Source: Octopus vulgaris (taxonomy: Eukaryota). From it: a stretch of 64,000 nucleotides of DNA. The position numbers were made by a program, and so were the translations under genes. Positions 19,899 to 63,752 of this stretch are shown here, one piece after another (position 1 is the stretch's first letter; each line of letters begins with the position of its first letter). The notes beneath the pieces were generated by a model. It searched no databases. It saw only the letters and a list, made by a program, of their open reading frames with translations, and was not told the origin of the DNA. The stretch covers positions 15,748,001-15,812,000 of the forward strand of contig OX597814.1 in assembly GCA_951406725.2 (NCBI GenBank), read 5' to 3'.

Positions 19899-19981
19899 GG
19901 TCCCGGGTTGATTCGGGGTTAACCACAGTAAATAAGGTACTCAATACATAGCAGAGTAAAATTAATTTATTATATAGAAGG

Positions 19982-20032
19982 AGCTTCTACAGGACTAGAA
20001 CTGTTTCATTCAAGAGAAATCTTCAGGAAGCT
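19982..20032 (-). ncRNA. Type I hammerhead ribozyme motif (left arm)
   Basis: Exact reverse complement of the motif at 22546-22596. Confidence 0.75.
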
Positions 20033-20212
20033 AGTTAACAAGAATTGTATTGGCATTTATACATTTAGGCAGGTTTAAAGGGGTGGTGGTGGGGGACTTT
20101 TGGGGGGTAGGCATAGCGCAAAAAAATCATACTTGGGGGAGTGGTCAAGGAGTCAGTGGTAAATTAGATAGAAGAATAAATAAAAGAATAAAAAAAAAAT
20201 AATAATAATAAT

Positions 20213-22310: not shown

Positions 22311-22545
22311 AAGTGAGAATTTCCTTATTTACCTAAAACTCTATTCTTCTATATATTTTTTTATTCCCTTTTTTTAATTTTTTTTTATTCTTTTATTTAT
22401 TCTTCTATCTAATTTACCACTGACTCCTTGACCACTCCCCCAAGTATGATTTTTTTTTGCGCTATGCCTACCCCCAAAAAGTCCCCCACCACCACCCCTT
22501 TAAACCTGCCTAAATGTATAAATGCCAATACAATTCTTGTTAACT

Positions 22546-22596
22546 AGCTTCCTGAAGATTTCTCTTGAATGAAACAGTTCTAGTCCTGTAGAAGCT
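22546..22596 (+). ncRNA. Type I hammerhead ribozyme motif (right arm); predicted cleavage after GUA at 22590
   Basis: AGCUUC-CUGAAGA-U.UUC UCUU GAA.U-GAAA-CAG UUCUAGUC CUG-UA-GAAGCU: 6-bp stem I, CUGANGA and GAAA cores, 4-bp stem III and GUA triplet. Stem II is weak (U-U at its base). Confidence 0.75.
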
Positions 22597-22601
22597 CCTT
22601 C

Positions 22602-22641
<40 letters not shown>

Positions 22642-30532: not shown

Positions 30533-31586
30533 TAAGGCAGCGAGCTGGCAGACACGTTAGCATGCAGGGCGAAATGCTGAGCAGTATTTCATCTGTCTTT
30601 ACGTTCTGCATTCAAATTCCGCCAAGGTCGACTTTGCCTTTCATCCTTTCGGGGTCGAATAAGTACCAGTTACGCACTGGGGTTGATGTAATCAACTTAA
30701 TACCTATGTCTGTCTTTGTTTGTCCCCTCTATGTTTAGCCCCTTGTGGGTAATAAAGAAATAGGTATTTCATCTGTCTTTTCGTTCTGAGTTCAAATTCT
30801 GCCAAGGTCGACTTTGCCTTTCATCCTTTTGGGGTTGAATAAGTACCAGTTACGCACTGGGTTGATGTAATCAACTTAATACCTATGTTTGTCTTTGTTT
30901 GTCCCCTCTATGTTTAGCCCCTTGTGGGTAATAAAGAAATAGGTATTTCATCTGTCTTTTCGTTCTGAGTTCAAATTCTGCCGAGGTCGACTTTGCCTTT
31001 CATCCTTTCGGGGTCGAATAAGTACCAGTTACGCACTGGGGTTGATGTAATCAACTTAATACCTATGTTTGTCTTTGTTTGTCCCCTCTATGTTTAGCCC
31101 CTTGTGGGTAATAAAGAAATAGGTATTTCATCTGTCTTTTCGTTCTGAGTTCAAATTATACCAAGGTCGACTTTGCCTTTCATCCTTTTGGGGTTGAATA
31201 AGTACCAGTTACGCACTGGGGTTGATGTAATCAACTTAATACCTATGTCTGACTTTGTTTGTCCCCTCTAATGTTTAGCCCCTTGTGGGTAATAAAGAAA
31301 TAGGTATTTCATCTGTCTTTATGTTCTGAGTTCGAATTCTGCCGAGGTCGACTTTGCCTTTCATCCTTTCGGGGTTGATTAAATAAGTACAAGTTATGCA
31401 CTGAGGTCAATGTAATCGACTTAATCCATTTGTCCCCTCTGTGTGTAGCCCCTTGTGGGCAGTAAAGAAATAAGAAACGTCAGCACACCAGGCGAAATGC
31501 TTAGCCGTATTTCGTCTGTCTTTACGTTCTGAGTTCAAATTCCGCCGAGGTCGACTTTGCATTTCATCCTTTCAAGGTCAATAAAT
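30533..31586 (+). mobile_element. SINE family B multimer (about six ~180-bp units)
   Basis: Units start at ~30583, 30763, 30942, 31122, 31303 and ~31507. Confidence 0.85.
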
Positions 31587-32293
31587 TAAGTACCAGTTGC
31601 ATAATGGGGTTGATCTAATTGACTGGCCCCCTCCCCAAAAATTTCGGGCCTTGTGCCTAGAGTAGAAAAGAATATTCTTACATAAAGTAAGTACCAGTTG
31701 CATAATGGGGTTGATCTAATTGACTGGCCCCCTCCCCCAAAATTTCGGGCCTTGTGCCTAGAGTAGAAAAGAATATTCTTACATAAAGTAAGTACCAGTT
31801 GCATAATGGGGTTGATCTAATTGACTGGCCCCCTCCCCAACAATTTCGGGCCTTGTGCCTAGAGTAGAAAAGAATATTCTTACATAAAGTAAGTACCAGT
31901 TGCATAATGGGGTTGATCTAATTGACTGGCCCCCTCCCCAAAAATTTCGGGCCTTGTGCCTAGAGTAGAAAAGAATATTCTTACATAAAGTAAGTACCAG
32001 TTGCATAATGGGGTTGATCTAATTGACTGGCCCCCTCCCCCAAAATTTCGGGCCTTGTGCCTAGAGTAGAAAAGAATATTCTTACATAAAGTAAGTACCA
32101 GTTGCATAATGGGGTTGATCTAATTGACTGGCCCCCTCCCCCAAAATTTCGGGCCTTGTGCCTAGAGTAGAAAAGAATATTCTTACATAAAGTAAGTACC
32201 AGTTGCATAATGGGGTTGATCTAATTGACTGGCCCCCTCCCCCAAAATTTCGGGCCTGGTGCCTAGAGTAGAAAAGAATATTCTTACATAAAG
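31587..32293 (+). repeat. 7 x 101-bp tandem array made of the SINE 3' end plus the insertion TSD
   Basis: Unit TAAGTACCAGTTGCATAATGGGG...GTAGAAAAG-AATATTCTTACATAAAG starts at 31587, 31688, 31789, 31890, 31991, 32092 and 32193. Confidence 0.95.
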
Positions 32294-33173
32294 AAAAATG
32301 TTGTGGATTTGAACCCAAGACTTCATGATTTAAATATGAATTTCTTACCAATTCAGCCTGCCTGCAACATTGTCAATGTATACAAATGCAAATACACATG
32401 AAGAGAATATAGAAGAATATAACACAACAATATTTTCTTTAAAAAATATTAATGTTCATAACATACATTTAAGACAATACAAATGAAATTTTTGATTTTT
32501 ATATTTTTACAGAGACGTAGAATGGTGTGGAATGAAGTAATTTAAATATGATTAAAAGCAGTTATGTGTATGTACATATCGATCCAGCATGATCAGAGAC
32601 CACTGGCTAAAAATAGTAAAATAACACACACACTGAGGAATAGGTAAGGCTGTACAGGTATAGGCTTAATTGTGTAATTAAGAAGTTTGCATCCCAACCA
32701 CACTATTTCTGGTAGCTCCAAGTCAACCAAAGCCTTGATGTGGATTTGGTAGAAATTAAGAGCCTATTGTATGCATACAAATATACATGTCCGTGTGTGT
32801 GTTTCCTTGTCTTAAGATTAAATGCTAGTTGAAAAATGAATGCCACTGCTATATATGCAGTGTCATTCATTTACACAGACATGTCTATCCATGGTGAAGT
32901 ATTTACTTTGCTTGGTTACAGGCGAATCTTAGTGACAGAAACAGCATTCAGCCATTGAAAATCTGCTTCAATATGCTGTCCAACGCATGCAATCATGGAA
33001 AAGTGGACATTAAACTAAAGATCGTGATAATGATAATGATAAATATTACAATTATTATTATTATTATTATTATACTAGTTTCACCTTGTGGTCGATATCA
33101 CTGTTGGGGATATATATACATTGCAGGTGTATAAAAATGTCAATGACTTTCTCGCTTTAAATGTTAATTTTCC

Positions 33174-35334: not shown

Positions 35335-36160
35335 GTGGCACATAAAAGCACCATCCGTTCGTGGCCGTCTTGCCAGCCCTGTCTGGCACCTGTGCGGGTG
35401 GCACGTAAAAAGCACCCACTACACTCACGGAGTGGTTGGCATTAGGAAGGGCATCCAGCCGTAGAAACACTGCCAGATCTGACTGGGCCTGATGAAGCCT
35501 TCCGGCTTCACAGACCCCAGTTGAACCGTCCAACCCATGCTAGCATGGAAAACGGACGCTAAATGATGATGATGATGATGATGATGATATATATATATCT
35601 TTGTACAGTGTTGGTATTAGATGCTGTGGTCCCGACTTATGACTTTACAGTACAATGAAGCTAGTAGGATTCATGACATTCATGAGGTCAAAACAAAACT
35701 GAAAGATAAACAATATAGCTGAAGTAAGGATTCGACACAAAATTACACAATCAGTAGATCAATCATCTCAACTCCATATTGAGTGGATACAACAGTGTCA
35801 CCCACTGATACCAGCAATTTTTTTCATCCCATTCACTCTGCTGGAAAGGAGTGAATAGGTTTGCAATAAGAAAAGGCGGCGAGATGGCAGTATCGTTAGC
35901 GCGCCGGGCGAAATGCGTTGCCGTATTTCGTCTGCCGCTACGTTCTGAGTTCAAATTCCGCCGAGGTCGACTTTGCCTTTCATCCTTTCGGGGTTGATAA
36001 ATTAAGGACCAGTTAAGCACTGGGGTCGATATAATCGACTTAATCCGTTTGTCTGTCCTTGTTTGTCCCCTCTGTGTTTAGCCCCTTGTGGGTAGTAAAT
36101 AAATCATGTTTGCAATAAGTTAGCAATATTCTCTGTACAAATCAAACTGATCAACATTAC

Positions 36161-36289
36161 CTGGTTGTTGATCTGACAGCAAATGTTGTAAAGATTCTGT
36201 ACCAAGAATCCATTCTCAAAACTTCTCACTGGTTGTAGGTCTGGATCACCTTGGTAACTCACGTTGGCTGTACGCAGCCTGTTCATCAG
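36161..36289 (-). CDS. SMPD4: SMPD4 exon (129 nt, phase 0-0)
   Basis: AG/GT; LMNRLRTANVSYQGDPDLQPVRSFENGFLVQNLYNICCQINNQ (conserved YQGDPxLQPxRSxE). Confidence 0.93.
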
Positions 36290-37845
36290 CTAACAATTGA
36301 ACAGATATGCATACACAATTTAGTTCATTGCTTTATTTGTAAGTACAAAAATACATATACTGAAGTTCTTTACAGTATTATCAACATATAAGCATGCAAC
36401 ACGTCTCTGCCATGTAAAAAACAGAGAAATTGAAAAGAAAAATTTTTTTTAAATCATTCATCGTCCACAAAGCAGAAACCTTTAGTGACAATGAAAATTC
36501 AATAAGACTGAATTTTCAGTTCAAGCTTAATTTCTTTCTGCCTCAATTGGAGCTAAATAAAGTTTTGATGTTCTAAGAAGGTAAGTGAAGTAACAAGATT
36601 GATATAATCTGTTACACTCATAGCACAACACAATATATACAACGATATTATGTGAAAAAACAACAGATGCAGATATACAACTCCAACACACTCATGTGCT
36701 TTGTGCACACTCATCAACATACTAGCAATAATAATCAAATCTCCAGCAAATGACACCCTTAAACCTTTAAATAACAAGTATCATCATCATCATTTAACGT
36801 CCGCTTTCCATGCTAGTATGGGTAGGATGATTTGACTGAGGACTGGCGAACCAGATGGCTGCACCAGGCTCCAGTCTGATCTGGCAGAGTTTCTACAGCT
36901 GGATGCCCTTCCTATCGCAAACCACAGTGTTGTGGGTGCTTTTATGTGCTATCGGCACAAGGGCCAGTCTGGCGGTCCTGGCAACGGCCACGCTCAAATG
37001 GTGTCTTTTTACGTGCCACCTGCAGAGGAGTCAGTCCAGCGGCACTAGCAACGACCTTGCTTGAATGTTTTGTTCACGTGCCACTGGCACAAGTGTCAGT
37101 GAGGCGACGCTGGTAACAACCATGGATACATCATCATCATCATCATTTAGCGTCCGTTTTCCATGCTAGCATGGGTTGGACAGTTAAACTGGGGTCTGTG
37201 AAGCCGGAAGGCTTCATCAGGCCCAGTCAGATCTGGCAGTGTTTCCACGGCTGGATGCCCTTCCTAACGCCAACCACTCCGTGAGTGTAGTGGGTGCTTT
37301 TTACGTGCCACCTGCACAGGTGCCAGACAGAGCTGGCAAACGGCCACGAACGGATACATTATACAATATAGTTCTTCATATAGAAAGACAGGATGGTCAT
37401 AGCTGAAATGCTGTCATTTGAAGGTTTTCTCACTTGGGAGAAACATCTCCTACTACAAATCCTTTCTGTCAATATAAAATGACAATCTTTTCTATTGAGA
37501 AGGCAGCTATTACAATCTTCATTTCGTAAAACTTTCAACTCCAAATTCTGAATGGGTATCCTTCGGTTCTCTTGCTAATTTAATCACAGCCAACTTAACA
37601 ATTGTTTGAGGAATAAGTTGAATAAGTAATGACTGATTTATCAAGGTGACAGCTAGGAAGAGAGAAACAGAATATTTTCTCAACCACTCGTATGAATAAA
37701 TTGTAAGTCTAAGGGAGATAACTCACGGACATTGAAATTGGTTTCTATTTCATTTAAGGATACCAAGTTGCCACTACATAGCCGTTCGTCCTGCTAGAAA
37801 TAGAAGCCAACTACACTATTCTACAAATAGAAGTCAAACTACACC

Positions 37846-56695: not shown

Positions 56696-56915
56696 CCAGT
56701 ATTCTGGGACTGAATGACAGGACTTCGTACCAAAGATGGCATATGAGGGATGGCTGGAATTTGCTGTTTCTCCAGAGGTAACAAGTAGTCTAAATAATCC
56801 TCAACCAAAGTTGGATATAAAAAAGCAGAAAAGTGACCCCAAATTGGGCAGTTCAGCCTAGATTTAGGGCTCACAAGCATAAAGGCAAAATGGAAAAGAA
56901 ATAATTCAAATGGAG
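56696..56915 (-). CDS. SMPD4: SMPD4 exon (220 nt), preceded by the AC end of a U12 intron
   Basis: (T)PFELFLFHFAFMLVSPK...LYPTLVEDYLDYLLPLEK...QSQNT; GTGAG donor. Confidence 0.9.
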
Positions 56916-57048
56916 GTAAGAACAAAAGAGTTAAGGGAAATGTTAAATTATCAAGTGAGAAAATGTGGTGCCCCAGCATGGCCGCAGCCTTCGGGCTAAA
57001 ACATTTTTAAGGATTTAAGGATTTATCATAAAAAAAGAAATATATATA

Positions 57049-57303
57049 CAGGGTTGGCCAAAAGTCAACCGACAGTAAATCAAAATTCCATAAATACTTA
57101 ATATTCAATTTTATTTAGTCATTCCAATTATGAATGTTTAATAATTGAATATGCTGTGAGTTAAAATCACCGTTTTTCATTTTTTTTTTTTAATTTTCAA
57201 CTTTGTCTATTTATTAGTGAAGTCTCATATAAAACAATTTTTTGCTTTAATCTTGGAATTAAATGGTTTTGATTTACTATCAGGTGACTTTTGGCCAAAC
57301 CTG
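57049..57303. mobile_element. Tc1-like MITE
   Basis: TA-CAGGGTTGGCCAAAAGTCAACCGACAGTAAATCAAAA ... TTTTGATTTACTATCAGGTGACTTTTGGCCAAACCTG. Confidence 0.75.
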
Positions 57304-57319
57304 TGTATGAGTAGTATAA

Positions 57320-57890
57320 GATGTTTTTGATTCGACGGTCATTCAGAATGCTCACAGCAGCCATATTCCTACTGCTCTATGTCACACTGGTGAGACCCAT
57401 ATTGGAGTACGGGATTCAAGCCTCTTCTTATCTCCTCAAAGACATACATCATCTCGAAAGAGTCCAGAAGCTGGCTACCCACATAGTTCTTGGTCTCAAG
57501 CATTTGTCTTATGAAGAAAGGCTGAAGACGCTCGACCTTTATTCTCTAGAAAAACGACGATCTCATTCTCGCTCACAACATCATAAGCAGAAAGTGTAAC
57601 CTCTCGAAAGAGCTGTTCTTCACTCCTGCTCCAGAGCGTGGGCTGCGGGGTCACTCCGCAAAGCTCTATCTATGACGATTTCATCTCAATCAAAGAAGAG
57701 GAGCTTTCTCCGTCCGGGTTGCGGATCCGTGGAATAAGCTGCCAGACGAGATAGTGAAGATGCCGCCGACCGCTCAGTTCAAAGACTCTCTTGACCAGAA
57801 ATGGCCTGAACTCTTTGTATGACCACCCTCCCTATACATAACTCCCTGTCCCGCTACATAACCTTGCTCTTGCTTTTTGAGCCAATAAAA
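57320..57890 (+). mobile_element. CR1-type LINE 3' fragment
   Basis: LLLYVTLVRPILEYG...LERVQKLAT...LSYEERLKTLDLYSLEKRR. Confidence 0.85.
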
Positions 57891-58370
57891 ATTGAATTGA
57901 ATCGAAGTGGACTCAGTGCTTTTTGTGTGGCACTGGCACAGGGAAAATTAGTTTTGGCATGATTTTTATAGCTGGATGCCCTTCCAAATGCTAACCACTT
58001 TACAGTGTGGACTGGATTCTTTTTACGTGGCACCAGCACTGGCAGGGTCACCAAGTAACTTGCAAGACAAAGAATTTTGAGAGGGGCAGGGGCATTTGAG
58101 GCGAGGAACTAGTGTCAGAGAATAAAAGATTTAAAGTGTGACAGAGGGACAGAGGCGAAAACAGGTATCTTGCTATAATGGAGTGCGGGGCATTAGAGGA
58201 GGTGATCCAGAAATAGCAGCAAAGAAAATTTGTAAAAATCAAATCACTGCATGTAAGGGACAGAGTAGTCAAATTAATCACAGTATTTGATTAGTATCAA
58301 CTCCGGCAGTACGAAAGGCCAAGTCTACCTTGGTGGGATTTAAACTAAGGACATATTTAAATATGCCTAC

Positions 58371-59315
58371 AAAAAACACCACTTGAGCATGGCTGTTGCC
58401 AGTACCGCCTGACTGGCGCTTTGTGTTGGTAGCACATAAAAGCACCCACTACACTCTCGAAGTGGTTGGCGCTAGGAAGGACATCCAGCTATAGAAACTC
58501 TGCCAGATCAGATTGGAGTCTGGTGCAGCCATCTGGTTTGCCAGACCTCAGTCAAATCATTCAACCATGCTAGCAATAATGATAATATTTCAAACTTTTG
58601 GCCACAACTGTATACTGATACTTTAAATGCTGTGTTCACTTATGCTCCAATAATATGTGCTTATGAAATTTTGTGAAAAATGAGGAAATAAAGTGTCAAA
58701 CTGTTAGGTCCCTCTCTCTGCAGACTGTTGTACCTTTTTAGTGTTGGTACAATGACACAATGTTCACTCAGTAAGGTGGTTGGTAGCAAGAAAAGCATCT
58801 GGCCATATGCCACCAGCTCAAATGCCAGTAAGGTGACGCTGGTAACGATCATGTTTGAATGGTGCTTTTTACGTGCCACCAGCACAGAAGCCAGTTAGCT
58901 GCTCTGGTAGCAATCATGCTCGGATAGTGCTCTTAGCACTCCACTGGCACGGGTGCCAATATTTGTTTCTATCTCATGCTGGTAACATGTTAAAGGTACC
59001 TGTGGAGTGGTTGGCATAGAAACCAAGCCAAAACAGACGGGAGCCTGGGGCAGCTCTCCAGTTTACCAGTTCCAGTCAAACTTTCTTACCCATGCCTGCA
59101 TGGAAAATGGATGTTAAATGATGATGATGTCTTTATGTTCTGAGTTCAGATTCTGCTCAGATTACCCTCAGAGATCAGAAAAATAAATATGATGAAACCC
59201 CTGAAAGCAGTGCCTAGGATGGCCACAATCCAATGAGTGAATAAAAGCGTATGATACATGTATAAATTTCTAATTTCTTTTTGCAGGTGGAATTCCAGAA
59301 TGCTATTTCGAAACC
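58371..59315 (+). repeat. Inverted duplication of 62578-63483, including the SMPD4 acceptor and the first 29 nt of the exon
   Basis: Identical ORF-track peptides at 58661-58885(-) and 62969-63193(+); TTTTTGCAG-GTGGAATTCCAGAATGCTATTTCGAAACC at ~59278-59315. Confidence 0.95.
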
Positions 59316-59954
59316 TGTTGGGGCAAGTGAAATCGGAATTGAAATTGAACCAATCCTATGACTGGCACCCGGCAGATGCCAGGACCCCTGGACTGGAGAT
59401 ACGTAAAAAGCACTATCCGAATCGTGGCCGATGCCAGCGCCGCCTCGACTGGCTTCCGTGTCGGTGGCACGTAAAATGCACCAATCCGAATCGTGGCCGA
59501 AGCCAGTGCCGCCTCGACTGGCTTCCGTGCAGGTGGCACGTAAAATACACCAATCCGACCGTGGCCGATGCCAGCCTCGCCTGGCACCAGTGCAGGTGGC
59601 ACGTAAAAAGCACCCACTACACTCACGGAGTGGTTGGCATTAGGAAGGGCATCCAGCTGTAGAAACATTGCCAGATAAGACCGGAATCTGGTGCAGCCTT
59701 CTGGCTTCCCAGATCCCCGGTCGAACCGTCCAACCCATGCTAGCATGGAGAACGGACGTTAAACGATGATGATGATGATGATGTAAGGCATTTTCTCTAA
59801 CCCTTTGCAATTCTGCCATCAAAATGTTTACAATTTAAAAAATCAGTTTCTACAAGACAAATGAATAAAAACATCATCAGCATGGAAGACGGATATTAAA
59901 CAATGACGATGATGATGATGCATAAGTGTGTAGTAGCACATTTAAAAAGGATAT

Positions 59955-60051
59955 TGAGAGTTAGATAAGGACGACCAAATGCTTGCATCTGTAGTTTGTT
60001 GGCGTAAAATACCGGCACAGCTCCTTCTTCAATCAAACGTCTTGTTGGTGC
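59955..60051 (-). CDS. SMPD4: SMPD4 exon (97 nt) ending at the U12 AT donor
   Basis: CTAG acceptor; APTRRLIEEGAVPVFYANKLQMQAFGRPYLTL, then ATATCCTT. Confidence 0.9.
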
Positions 60052-60601
60052 CTAGAATAAATTCAGACAGTAAATATATTAAAAAGTGAAAAGAAGTCAA
60101 ATATTAGTTTCAAATTTTTAGTACAAGGCCAGAAATTTTGAGGGAGAGGCTTAGTCGATTACATTGACCCCCAGTACTCAACTGGTACTTTATTGTTTTC
60201 TACTCTAGGCAAAAGGCCTGAAATTTTGGGGAAGGGGGGGGCAGTCGATTAGATCGACTCCAGTATGAAACTGGTACTTAATTTATCAATCCTGAAAGGA
60301 TGAAAGGCAAAGTCAACCTCGGCGGAATCTGAACTCAGAATGTAAAAGCAGGCGAAATATTGCTAAGCATTTCACCCAGTGTGCTAACGTTTCTGCCAGC
60401 TTGCCACCTTTGGTGCTTAATTTATTGATCTTGAATGGATTTTATTTTTAGAATGACATTGTAGGGTAGGTATGAGAGATTTGATCAGGCTGGTTTGAAC
60501 ATAAAACACATAGAATATTTGTGTTTGATATGACCAGTTTAAATGCAAAAGAATTAAGTGTTTGTAAAACATTAAAAGTAAAACGAAATGTTCATACTTA
60601 C

Positions 60602-60817
60602 TGGTAGACAATGCAAAGGGAAATCATATGATAAATAAGGATCTGATTGTAGGCGATATACCAATTTCATTAAGGGGCCATTTGGTGACAGAAAAGCCCT
60701 GCCATATTCATATTCTTCTGGTGTTTTGATCTTGTTGATATATTCTAAATTCCAACCAGGCTCATGGCCAAATCCGAAAATACTTTCTAATATAGTTGGG
60801 AAAATATGGTGAGCTTC
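60602..60817 (-). CDS. SMPD4: SMPD4 exon (216 nt)
   Basis: EAHHIFPTILESIFG...GWNL...FLSPNGPLMKLVYRLQ...YDFPLHCLP matches the recalled SMPD4 N-terminal region. Confidence 0.95.
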
Positions 60818-61439
60818 CTGCATAAAACACAAAACAGAAATTAAATAAAAAGACACACACATACAACTTTCAACATCAAAATTAATCTTAATGAAACATA
60901 TAAAGACCCCCTTCGGTCACGACACAGACCATGGGATTGCACCTAGAAAGTTACCCTCCTAGACACAAGTCCGGGCAAGGTTGTTTATGGAAGACCAGCA
61001 GTCACCCATGCATACCAGCCTCCCCTCTCCACGCCACCAGTGTTATCCAAGGGAAAGACAAAGGCCGATTCAGCTTGGCACCAGTGACGTCGCAACTCAT
61101 TTCTACAGCTGAGTGAACTGGAGCAACGTGAAATAAAGTGCCTTGCTCAAGAACACAACACGCAGCCCGGTCCGGGATTCGAGCTCACAACCTCACGATC
61201 GTAAGCTCGACGCTCTAACATCTGAGCCATGTGCCTTCACCTAATGAAGCATATATAGAAAAAAAAATTCACTGGAAATTCAGAGAAACAAGCACTAAAT
61301 GAATGCTATAGTTTTTCCTTTAATTATTTCAGTATGCACCTCAACTTTTCTGCTTATATCTACAGTTTTTATGCTATTTCTAATAGTAGACACACCACTT
61401 TTACATACATTTTCATTGGGAAAAAATGACATATAGTAT

Positions 61440-61664
61440 AAGGGTTAAGAAAAAAAGTAGATTGAGTTTTAATATTATTAATCAATATATAGGTATAGGA
61501 GTAGCTGTGTAGTAAGTAGCTTGCTTACCAACCACATGGTTCTGGGTTCATTCCCACTGCGTGACACTTTGGGCAAGCGTCTTCTACTATAGCCTCGGGC
61601 CGACCAAAGCCTTTTGAGTGGATTTGGTAGACGGAAACTGAAAGAAGCCCGTTGTATATTTTTT

Positions 61665-61698
<34 letters not shown>

Positions 61699-62129
61699 TG
61701 CGTCGGTGTTTGTCCCCCAAACATCTCTTGACAACCGATGCTGGTGTGTTTAGTCCCCATAACTTAGCGGTTTGGCAAAAGAGACCAATAGAATAAGCAT
61801 TAGGCTTACAAAGAATAAATTCTGGGGTCGCTTTGCTCGACTAAAGGTGGTGCTCTGGCATGGCCACAGTCAAATGACTGAAAAGAGTAAAGAGTATATC
61901 AGCAAGAAGGGTTAAGAAAAAAAGTTGATTGAGTTTTAATATTATTAATCAATATATAGGTATAGGAGTAGCTGTGTAGTAAGTAGCTTGCTTACCAACC
62001 ACATGATTCTGGGTTCATTCCCACTGCGTGACACTTTGGGCAAGCGTCTTCTACTATAGCCTCGGGCCGACCAAAGCCTTTTGAGTGGATTTGGTAGACG
62101 GAAACTGAAAGAAGCCCGTTGTATATTTT

Positions 62130-62173
<44 letters not shown>

Positions 62174-62382
62174 TGCGTCGGTGTTTGTACCCCAAACATC
62201 TCTTGAAACCGATGCTGGTGTGTTTAGTCCCCGTAACTTAGCGGTTTGGCAAAAGAGACCAATAGAATAAGCACTAGGCTTACAAAGAATAAATTCTGGG
62301 GTCGCTTTGCTCGACTAAAGGCGGTGCTCTGGCATGGCCGCAGTCAAATGACTGAAAAGAGTAAAGAGTATATCAGCAAGAA
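61440..62382 (+). repeat. Tandem duplication (2 x ~467 bp) of a family-A SINE plus flanks
   Basis: AAGGGTTAAGAAAAAAAGT... recurs at ~61440 and ~61907; both units end AGAGTATATCAGCAAGAAGG. Confidence 0.9.
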
Positions 62383-62522
62383 GGAAGAGAAAAATGATGC
62401 TGGCATCCAATATACTGTTAATGAACAATGTATAAATGGTGGAAAACTCTGAGAAAGCACCTCCAGTCTCTTACAGATCCTCAGAGTATTACTAAGATAA
62501 ACATCCATAAGGATGTACTTAC

Positions 62523-62606
62523 CTTTGTACTTATGCTCATGATAATTGAAGTCACCATTTCAAAACGCTTTAACAGTGGTTTCGAAATAGCATTCTGGAA
62601 TTCCAC
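62523..62606 (-). CDS. SMPD4: SMPD4 most 5' coding exon in the window (84 nt; start codon presumably further upstream)
   Basis: TTTTTGCAG/GTAAGT; VEFQNAISKPLLKRFEMVTSIIMSISTK, in frame with the next exon. Confidence 0.8.
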
Positions 62607-63243
62607 CTGCAAAAAGAAATTAGAAATTTATACATGTATCATACGCTTTTATTCATTCATTGGATTGTGGCCATCCTAGGCACTGCTTTCAGGGGGTTAA
62701 TCTGAGCAGAATCTGAACTCAGAACATAAAGACATCATCATCATTTAATATCCATTTTCCATGGGTAAGAAAGTTTGACTGGAACTGGTAAACTGGAGAG
62801 CTGCACCAGGCTCCCGTCTGTTTTGGCTTGGTTTCTATGCCAACCACTCCACAGGTACCTTTAACATGTTACCAGCATGAGATAGAAACAAATATTGGCA
62901 CCCGTGCCAGTGGAGTGCTAAGAGCACCATCCGAGCATGATTGCTACCAGAGCAGCTAACTGGCTTCTGTGCTGGTGGCACGTAAAAAGCACCATTCAAA
63001 CATGATCGTTACCAGCGTCACCTTACTGGCATTTGAGCTGGTGGCATATGGCCAGATGCCTTTCTTGCTACCAACCACCTTACTGAGTGAACATTGTGTC
63101 ATTGTACCAACACTAAAAAGGTACAACAGTCTGCAGAGAGAGGGACCTAACAGTTTGACACTTTATTTCCTCATTTTTCACAAAATTTCATAAGCACATA
63201 TTATTGGAGCATAAGTGAACACAGCATTTAAAGCATCAGTATA

Positions 63244-63752
63244 CAGTTGTGGTCAAAAGTTTGAAATATTATCATTATTGCTAGCATGGTTGGATGATTT
63301 GACTGAGGTCTGGCAAACCAGATGGCTGCACCAGACTCCAATCTGATCTGGCAGAGTTTCTATAGCTGGATGTCCTTCCTAGCGCCAACCACTTCGAGAG
63401 TGTAGTGGGTGCTTTTATGTGCCACCAACACAAAGGGCCAGTCAGGCGGTACTGGCAACAGCCATGCTCAAGTGGTGTTTTTTACATGCCACCTGCACAG
63501 GAGCCAGTCCAGCAGCACTGGCAACGACCTCACTCGAATGTTTTTTCATGTGCCAGGTAACGGTAATGCTTGTATGGTACTCTTAATGCTCCACTAGCAT
63601 GGATGTCAGTCATCAGGTCTGAAAATTAGAAATTTTACATCAAATGCCCAGTTATATTCATTTTGCAATATACTATTACCACTTACAGTAATATGGTGGA
63701 TATAACAATTTTAATTTAATAAATGAATGTTCCAAACTTTTGGTCATGACTA
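63244..63752. mobile_element. Tc1-like MITE interrupted by an RTE 3'-UTR repeat
   Basis: TA-CAGTTGTGGTCAAAAGTTTG ... CAAACTTTTGGTCATGACTA. Confidence 0.5.

Follow-up and report, generated by a model that had tools for sequence, protein, structure and literature searches.

The 64,000-nt window analysed here (Octopus vulgaris contig OX597814.1, positions 15,748,001 to 15,812,000) carries on its minus strand part of a gene identified as SMPD4 from a PF14724 profile match. Three coding exons are relevant to this study: an 84-nt exon of phase 0-0 (62523..62606, assigned from annotated proteins), a 216-nt exon (60602..60817, PF14724 E 8.9e-16) and a 97-nt exon read from the sequence (59955..60051), which ends at a U12 donor. 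The intron beginning at this donor (56916..59954, minus strand, 3,039 nt) is of the AT-AC, U12 type, with the donor ATATCCTT, a TCCTTAAC-like branch-site motif (CCTTAAC) 15-20 nt ahead of the AC, and an AC acceptor placed where it restores the frame, the joined frame matching the annotated proteins. Our literature search found nothing on a U12-type intron in SMPD4, a weak absence that depends on the wording used. The 84-nt exon is included in the annotated SMPD4 proteins of O. vulgaris, O. sinensis, O. bimaculoides and Argonauta, and its skipping would leave the reading frame intact.

Within the AT-AC intron lies one arm of an inverted repeat. This left arm (58371..59315, plus strand, 945 nt) is the reverse complement of 62578-63483 over 906 aligned columns with 11 substitutions, a divergence of 1.2%, and has 8 nt (59091-59098) and 31 nt (59164-59194) that are found in it only. 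The right arm (62578..63483, minus strand) is the source segment, made up of the 877 nt that end the 3,931-nt intron 66537-62607 and of 29 nt of exon; the 8 nt and the 31 nt kept in the copy have been lost from it, and the 31 nt are present, ungapped, in one contig from organism D. The left arm is an inserted copy of this intron end together with the first 29 bases of the 84-nt exon, which are found at 59287-59315. Its plus strand reads in the sense of the pre-mRNA, and it is hence antisense within the transcript. Old dispersed repeats overlap 508 of the 945 arm positions.

These measurements bear out most of the anatomy described in an earlier note on this DNA, which had proposed a recent inverted duplication with one arm in the U12 intron and had given its coordinates exactly. 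As it claimed, the match takes in the pyrimidine tract, the AG (62608-62607) and 29 coding nt of the exon 62606-62523 and ends within that exon, and the loop between the arms (put at ~3.3 kb, and 3,262 nt by our count) contains the exons 60817-60602 and 60051-59955 and the U12 donor. Two non-repetitive arm probes occur only twice each in the 2.8-Gb genome, which makes this a local duplication and not two copies of a repeat. A scan of 104 kb gave 73 inverted pairs (150 nt or more, 80% identity or more, within 10 kb), of which this pair was the longest and the top-scoring, and none of the 39 control loci of 10 kb held an inverted pair reaching 200 nt and 94% identity.

The LINE fused to the left arm and the insertion site

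Directly adjoining the left arm, with nothing in between and likewise in pre-mRNA sense, is a young LINE's 3' end, a fusion that the earlier note missed. The LINE piece (59316..59783, plus strand, 468 nt) is 5'-truncated, has a (GAT)n tail and is 96-98% identical to 39 other copies, 40 having been scored of 3,634 candidates. From its resemblance it may belong to the RTE clade; a longer sibling copy has an RVT_1 ORF (E 2e-28), together with a PHD match below threshold. In two respects the arrangement is that expected of a chimeric insertion by template switch, with the tailed 3' end of a 5'-truncated LINE on the 3' side and a captured piece of the host adjoining it in RNA sense.

At the junction (59309..59315, plus strand) the exon sequence CGAAACC faces CGAAGACC of the LINE, as seen by comparison with the siblings, in which ACC lies directly upstream of the junction point in 39 of 39 and CGAAGACC in 33 of 39. 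The arm thus stops inside the exon, as previously noted, because of a CGAA(G)ACC microhomology with the LINE. In eight of the 39 siblings the truncation falls 13-22 nt upstream of the same point. None of the 39 has the arm-plus-LINE architecture, so this is not a habit of the family.

The left target flank (58360..58370, plus strand) has an ATG in common with the end of the tail, followed by 5 nt that match the right flank inverted, and it is here that contigs of two public samples leave the window (X2 at 58364, X1 at 58370). The right target flank (59784..59822, plus strand) appears to continue an old repeat that breaks off at 58365: when the flanks were joined, 5 of 29 repeat matches crossed the join, against none of 34 and none of 30 at control joins. 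The alternative join of 58370 to 59316, crossed by no repeat match, was rejected. Around the chimera the search for a direct target-site duplication returned only the ATG, which is shared with the tail, and the 5-nt inverted piece; target duplications of the sibling LINEs range from clear ones of 7-9 nt (L032, L055, L056) to none recognisable.

Public contigs across the left arm

Short-read contigs from 8 of 24 public runs were compared over the left-arm region. Contigs run from the left flank into the arm for 24 nt in X3 and 30 nt in X6, two samples from two studies that enter at the same base; both crossings are shorter than the 31 letters set as a rule, and the genome holds 28 occurrences of the arm's first 24 nt. 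X3 also carries the left-arm-specific bases at 58601 and 58620, and a contig of X1 ends exactly at 59315, the junction of arm and LINE. One of the two samples with left-junction contigs carries another species label.

In X2 the contig that leaves the left flank (record 4, depth 14.4) has 41 letters remaining, and the sole X2 contig at 59795, in the right flank, also has a depth of 14.4 and lies there 14 letters from its end. This contig appears to represent an empty site that lacks arm and LINE together, as judged from depth and leftover length, the joint itself not being among the listed pieces. At least one chromosome under the same species label therefore appears to be without the copy, which would be a presence/absence allele, apparently missing from some chromosomes.

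In organism B the listed contigs do not show the right junction: an X6 contig passes 59315 into the exon unbroken, and the arm's depth in X5 (58.5) is close to that of single-copy sequence (47-57). Contig depth was rejected as a test of copy number: the arm/flank values (74/40 in X1, 38/14 in X2, 42/34 in X3, 59/about 50 in X5 and 12/about 7 in X7) give ratios that do not track the inferred genotypes, and repeat ends inflate depth. Cover has gaps at 58307 in X5, X7 and X8 and at 58580-58747 in X6, and the tables of contig joints and loose ends were swamped by repeats.

Origin and consequences of the insertion

We consider it likely, with a probability of about 60%, that a single retrotransposition event brought arm and LINE into the AT-AC intron and that they now form a presence/absence allele that is probably neutral, neutrality being judged from drift and polymorphism. 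The LINE endonuclease would have cut the SMPD4 intron at about 58365/59784, and reverse transcription primed at the (GAT)n tail would have copied 468 nt of LINE. Near the point at which sibling copies frequently stop, the enzyme would then have changed templates at CGAA(G)ACC, moving to SMPD4 pre-mRNA that was still nascent, unspliced and tethered close by. From this it would have taken the 29 bases of exon, the acceptor and some 916 bases of intron, before the left flank was attached to the product. Being unspliced and transcriptionally upstream of the insertion site, the copied segment fits the requirement of a nascent-RNA template. The ages are also compatible, since the LINE differs from the sibling majority at 6 of 444 positions and the arms from each other at 11 of 906 (binomial p 0.12, assuming an equal rate per lineage). 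As for marks of an RNA template, the copy shows no removed intron, the piece spanning no complete one, and the signature of an edited RNA was sought in it and not found, there being no polarised A>G fixed in the copy.

A functionally identical neutral allele could have been copied from DNA, through microhomology-mediated template switching of the MMBIR/FoSTeS or polymerase-theta type, either during 5' joining of the LINE or later at the 5' edge of the inserted element. The short microhomologies at both ends and the 5-nt inverted target piece at the left junction would suit such an event, as would the L1 5'-end foldback inversions of 52-220 bp that PMC10191854 ascribes to DNA polymerases, and the 33 letters left unaligned in X1 record 1 could belong to a LINE-only allele, left from the first of two steps. 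A later event, however, would have to hit the LINE 5' edge exactly, the source lies 2.8-3.7 kb off and on the other side of the target, unlike the adjacent foldbacks, and both the sense and the upstream position, each at about even odds under DNA copying, fit an RNA template; we therefore regard DNA copying as possible but rather unlikely. Far less credible is an assembly artefact in which both haplotypes of one segment were placed, one of them inverted. The 1.2% divergence of the arms does resemble allele differences among contigs, and none of the listed pieces spans the whole arm, but flank-to-arm contigs enter at the same base in two other samples, the X1 break falls exactly at the right junction, and an assembler would not create a LINE microhomology there. 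This possibility, which the earlier note had raised, is thus largely refuted.

What the insertion does is a separate matter. Pairing of the arms is predicted for that fraction of carrier transcripts whose upstream intron is still unspliced, and RNAduplex supports the proposed duplex of ~900 bp with -1757 kcal/mol and perfect runs as long as 173 bp, the 29 bp of exon giving -49 kcal/mol by themselves; exon adenosines would thus be base-paired within the same pre-mRNA. The earlier note had suggested that this may be a recently born editing-complementary sequence that could recode E/Q/N/I/K codons, destroy the AG or promote exon skipping. In a functional version of this idea the duplex would direct the recoding or the AG editing, together with skipping of the 84-nt exon in frame, and selection would keep the element. 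The very stable predicted duplex, the 9 exon adenosines and the acceptor A inside it, the preserved frame and the appearance of the allele under two species labels all favour this reading, and the perfect 29-bp exon duplex could outlast removal of the upstream intron in transcripts that keep the U12 intron. Nevertheless, the allele is apparently missing from some chromosomes, and pairing has been neither conserved nor compensated: of the 11 substitutions 7 give mismatches and 4 give G.U pairs, none compensated, and the source arm has two deletions. Moreover, microhomology accounts for the exon endpoint, the duplex-paired residues are identical in the annotated proteins of the four species named above, and the sole RNA-like contig on the left arm, which has left-arm bases, lists no A>G or T>C, a weak negative given its 173 nt, 58 editable positions, depth of 3.9 and majority letters only. 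With both arms drifted, their pairs broken and a chromosome apparently without the copy, we see no sign of function and hold a selected element to be very improbable.

A related idea, that selection had weakened pairing near the acceptor, was dropped, as the 31-nt deletion also appears in X2, whose flank contig is without the arm, to judge from 36 unaligned letters. Published SMPD4/NSMA3 editing sites were absent from the parts covered of the supplements to PMC8382921, PMC7703385, PMC9699675 and PMC9068888, whose remaining tables may hold some. Under the retrotransposition account, pairing would yield low-level promiscuous editing, mostly intronic, as in other repeat duplexes. Back-splicing, also suggested previously, is unlikely on anatomical grounds: the repeats that flank circular RNAs leave compatible splice sites free, whereas this duplex would bury the acceptor needed, and the nearest downstream donor is U12-type and the acceptor U2-type.

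Implications and known systems

The locus bears on how new recoding sites arise in coleoids. In its boldest form, which we think unlikely, the LINE captured the nascent RNA of its host, so that a single step gave rise to an editing-complementary sequence (ECS) over a coding exon, the allele segregates across sister octopus species, and carriers recode or skip the SMPD4 exon where non-carriers do not. If this were true, the birth of recoding sites would be directly observable, and coleoid LINE activity would have a general route to seed them. A segregating duplex over one exon would also be a natural experiment, in which editing and splicing can be compared with and without the duplex, even between the alleles of one heterozygote; should carriers show no effect, this is an ordinary intronic structural variant.

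Known ECSs, such as that of the GRIA2 Q/R site, are intronic, lie downstream of the exon and pair with coding bases, and the SMPD4 arm resembles them in being intronic and downstream of the exon with which it is predicted to pair. Those elements are short, imperfect and conserved and direct site-selective editing, whereas the predicted SMPD4 duplex is 900 bp long, near perfect, young and apparently polymorphic. Inverted Alu pairs form comparable long intronic dsRNA. In coleoids, editing of introns and UTRs is directed by repeats, long intronic dsRNA being a likely substrate for widespread editing according to Albertin et al. 2022 (PMC9068888). The SMPD4 region is likewise already rich in inverted repeat pairs, but unlike such duplexes this pair holds unique sequence, a splice acceptor and coding bases.

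With regard to the LINE, PMC9115989 and PMC13282606 describe RTE-2_OV and other octopus RTE LINEs as recently active, with 13 such RTE families in O. vulgaris; our element, which may belong to one of these families, resembles them in general description, being likewise young, with an ORF for RT and a 3' UTR that is long. As a probable chimera it resembles the 3'-LINE insertions (U6/L1, mRNA/L1) of Law et al. (10.1101/2025.02.02.635956), in which cellular RNA lies 5' and a 5'-truncated LINE 3', in the same sense and as one insertion. Those chimeras have target-site duplications and involve mostly small RNAs or spliced exons from elsewhere, whereas the octopus piece is unspliced and local, and no clear direct duplication was seen around it.

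A close parallel comes from human tissue, where Nam et al. 2023 (PMC10191854, Extended Data Fig. 9g) describe one somatic insertion of L1 in a clone from an adenoma; there a portion of a nearby pre-mRNA underwent reverse transcription and was inserted along with the LINE, which was ascribed to strand switching. On our reading, local pre-mRNA would have been inserted together with a LINE in the octopus too, and the mechanism is already known from human L1; the octopus insertion differs in being germline, in a mollusc, with a (GAT)n-tailed non-L1 LINE, and in forming an inverted repeat over the host's own acceptor. The comparison suggests that switching of a reverse transcriptase onto local pre-mRNA also occurs in the octopus germline, with another type of LINE.

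The duplicated arm and its source in SMPD4

The earlier note had described 58371-59315 (+) as an inverted duplicate of 62578-63483 (-), and the alignment bears this out, with 11 substitutions in 906 aligned columns and 8 and 31 extra bases in the left arm relative to the right. Two probes from non-repetitive parts of the arm matched only the two arm positions in the 2.8-Gb genome, one search additionally returning two repeat matches of 38-40 nt, and old dispersed repeats overlap about half of the arm (508/945 positions). Among the 73 inverted pairs in 104 kb the arm pair was the longest and best-scoring, and no inverted pair reaching 200 nt at 94% was present in any of 39 control loci of 10 kb. 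Other close inverted pairs (~230-240 nt, 97%) join 19965-20205 with 22371-22613, and 35353-35580 with 37129-37355, the latter within SMPD4 and flanking its exon near 36116-36289. A tandem array of ~101-nt units at 98% identity occupies 31581-32296.

The minus-strand gene is SMPD4 (PF14724), with coding exons at 66573-66538 (just outside the window), 62606-62523 (84 nt), 60817-60602 and 60051-59955, and a further one starting at 56915. The 84-nt exon, with identical first ten residues, is present in named proteins of O. vulgaris, O. sinensis, O. bimaculoides and Argonauta. The right arm takes in the final 877 nt of an intron of 3,931 nt and 29 exon bases. Because the working splice site sits there, this arm is identified as the source and the left one as its copy. 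At 59954-56916 (-) lies an intron with AT-AC ends whose donor and branch motifs are of U12 type. It is bypassed in one annotated O. vulgaris model, P0001 (761 aa), which splices instead from GT at 60012 to AG at 56800 (minus strand) and loses 58 residues in frame; this reflects either an error of gene prediction or cryptic U2 splicing that skirts the U12 intron. At 56728 and at 56937, just upstream of the branch motif, all four sequencing runs of one comparison differ from the window, as do three of four at 59795; the window's letters are either rare alleles or assembly base errors. The intron after the 84-nt exon, within the loop, also contains a direct tandem duplication (61440-61923/61907-62394, ~470 nt, 96%) of a SINE-like repeat with flank.

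A young LINE end fused to the copy

Directly after the left arm, at 59316-59783 (+), lies a (GAT)n-tailed element. A genome search with it (40 scored of 3,634 candidates, one 35-nt fragment dropped) gave, besides the window's copy, 39 full-length matches at 96-98% identity. Since a reverse transcriptase ORF is present in a longer sibling, the element represents the 3' terminus of a young, putatively RTE-like LINE. Arm and LINE piece share one sense, that of the SMPD4 pre-mRNA. Just upstream of the junction point the bases end in ACC in 39/39 siblings, with CGAAGACC directly upstream in 33, the exon having CGAAACC in that register. Eight of the 39 siblings, which are best matches rather than a random sample and have approximate 5' boundaries, break off 13-22 nt upstream of the junction point, a cluster that suggests a stall site.

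Given this anatomy, the junction microhomology and compatible ages, arm and LINE piece most likely represent one retrotransposition event, a reading that is supported rather than proven. Priming at the target would have used an ATG common to target and LINE tail; 468 nt of LINE would have been reverse-copied first, followed by a template switch at CGAA(G)ACC onto nascent SMPD4 RNA, copying of 945 nt through the acceptor, and attachment to the left flank through 5 added bases mirroring the right flank. The flanks show no clear direct target duplication. The target site (58359-58371/59781-59794) is an imperfect palindrome, of which the filled allele, that with arm and LINE piece, has a short inverted, not direct, duplication.

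The main rival is that a DNA-templated switch produced the arm; for an RNA template, only sense and position speak. A fixed signature of edited RNA was sought in the copy and none was found: seven substitutions have repeat relatives, and four or five of these arose in the copy, none of them A>G; one A/G difference and both deletions arose in the source. None of the 39 siblings has an arm-type architecture (one 184-nt match at 94% and one direct tandem were not counted), suggesting that arm capture is an occasional accident. The tandem case is L044 (C1:70262679-70272678), whose 5' side has near-identical direct repeats (300 nt at 100%, period ~460 nt). The family often lies in (TA)n runs, and one copy (L019/L030, C23, near 26.60 Mb) adjoins an open frame that resembles a HECT-domain exon and may be native or captured.

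Against the majority sequence of its siblings the LINE piece shows 6 differences in 444 sites, and the two arms show 11 in 906, figures compatible with one age (p 0.12). At 0.0036 per site per million years, the rate quoted in PMC13282606, the 1.2% between the arms corresponds to ~1.7 million years, or to at most that if another allele was the source of the copy; the recent origin previously proposed thus stands.

Filled and apparently empty chromosomes

Eight of 24 available runs, all short-read contigs, were compared for the left arm only. Contigs of X3 (the window's species label, different sample and study) and X6 (another species label) run from the flank to 58394 and 58400, 24 and 30 nt into the arm, crossings below the 31-letter threshold; the first 24 nt of the arm occur 28 times in the genome, but an independent insertion beginning at the identical base of the identical flank is implausible. 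X3 also carries left-arm bases at 58601 and 58620, the GAT tail lies beside the right flank in X5 and X7, and an X1 contig terminates precisely at 59315, the break to be expected from a fork at the right junction. An assembly artefact is therefore improbable. Under the second species label the filled site rests on the left junction, an X6 contig continuing unbroken past 59315 into the exon; the species labels may include more than one species.

Record 4 of X2 (depth 14.4) departs from the window at 58364 with 41 letters remaining, and the sole X2 contig at 59795, likewise of depth 14.4, has 14 letters left to its end. We interpret the two contigs as the sides of an empty site that lacks both arm and LINE, the joint itself being unlisted. 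In agreement, the old repeat interrupted at 58365 resumes past the GAT tail, 5/29 matches crossing that join and 0/34 and 0/30 crossing control joins. X1 record 1 departs at 58370 with 33 letters of unseen sequence, 6 nt from the X2 departure, an offset for which a loop micro-inversion distinguishing empty alleles is a possible cause. X1 and X2 agree on A at 58247; the letter is C in the window and in X3, X5 and X6. Arm depth in X5 looks single-copy, and depth ratios do not match the inferred genotypes. The insertion is real and young, and the allele is probably segregating.

Predicted effect on RNA and comparison with known insertions

A very stable duplex is predicted for the arms, with stretches of 173, 131, 129 and 122 perfectly paired bp; it would take in the acceptor A and nine exon adenosines, in line with the proposed pairing over acceptor and coding bases. 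Because the complementary strand is transcribed 3.3 kb after the acceptor, the full duplex would be limited to transcripts with the upstream intron still unspliced; once that intron is gone, pairing with the exon could persist over 29 perfect base pairs for as long as the U12 intron stays in. The reading frame would survive skipping of the 84-nt exon. Back-splicing, also proposed, is unlikely, since the duplex would hide the acceptor and the neighbouring donor is of U12 type.

For editing there is no positive sign: the single RNA-like contig on the arm, from X12 and with left-arm bases (173 nt, depth 3.9, one unlisted difference, from a run that may contain DNA), lists no T>C or A>G among 58 editable positions, in majority letters only. 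The ubiquitous editing of coleoids is concentrated on intronic and UTR repeats (PMC9068888), and repeat pairs are already numerous in SMPD4, so that some intronic editing at a low level is what one would expect by default. The uncompensated drift and the apparently empty alleles speak against a fixed function of the duplex, though a young function would be compatible with both. That carriers alone recode or skip the exon is improbable, at perhaps one chance in five.

The insertion is mostly valuable as a natural experiment. Narrow literature searches returned no cephalopod case of a LINE with co-inserted pre-mRNA. Insertions of the 3'-LINE chimera type are catalogued in general (10.1101/2025.02.02.635956), and the octopus insertion is a further instance of an already known kind of LINE accident. 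Its closest counterpart (PMC10191854) is an L1 that once, in a human adenoma clone, co-inserted with pre-mRNA from its vicinity, as local pre-mRNA probably did with the LINE here.
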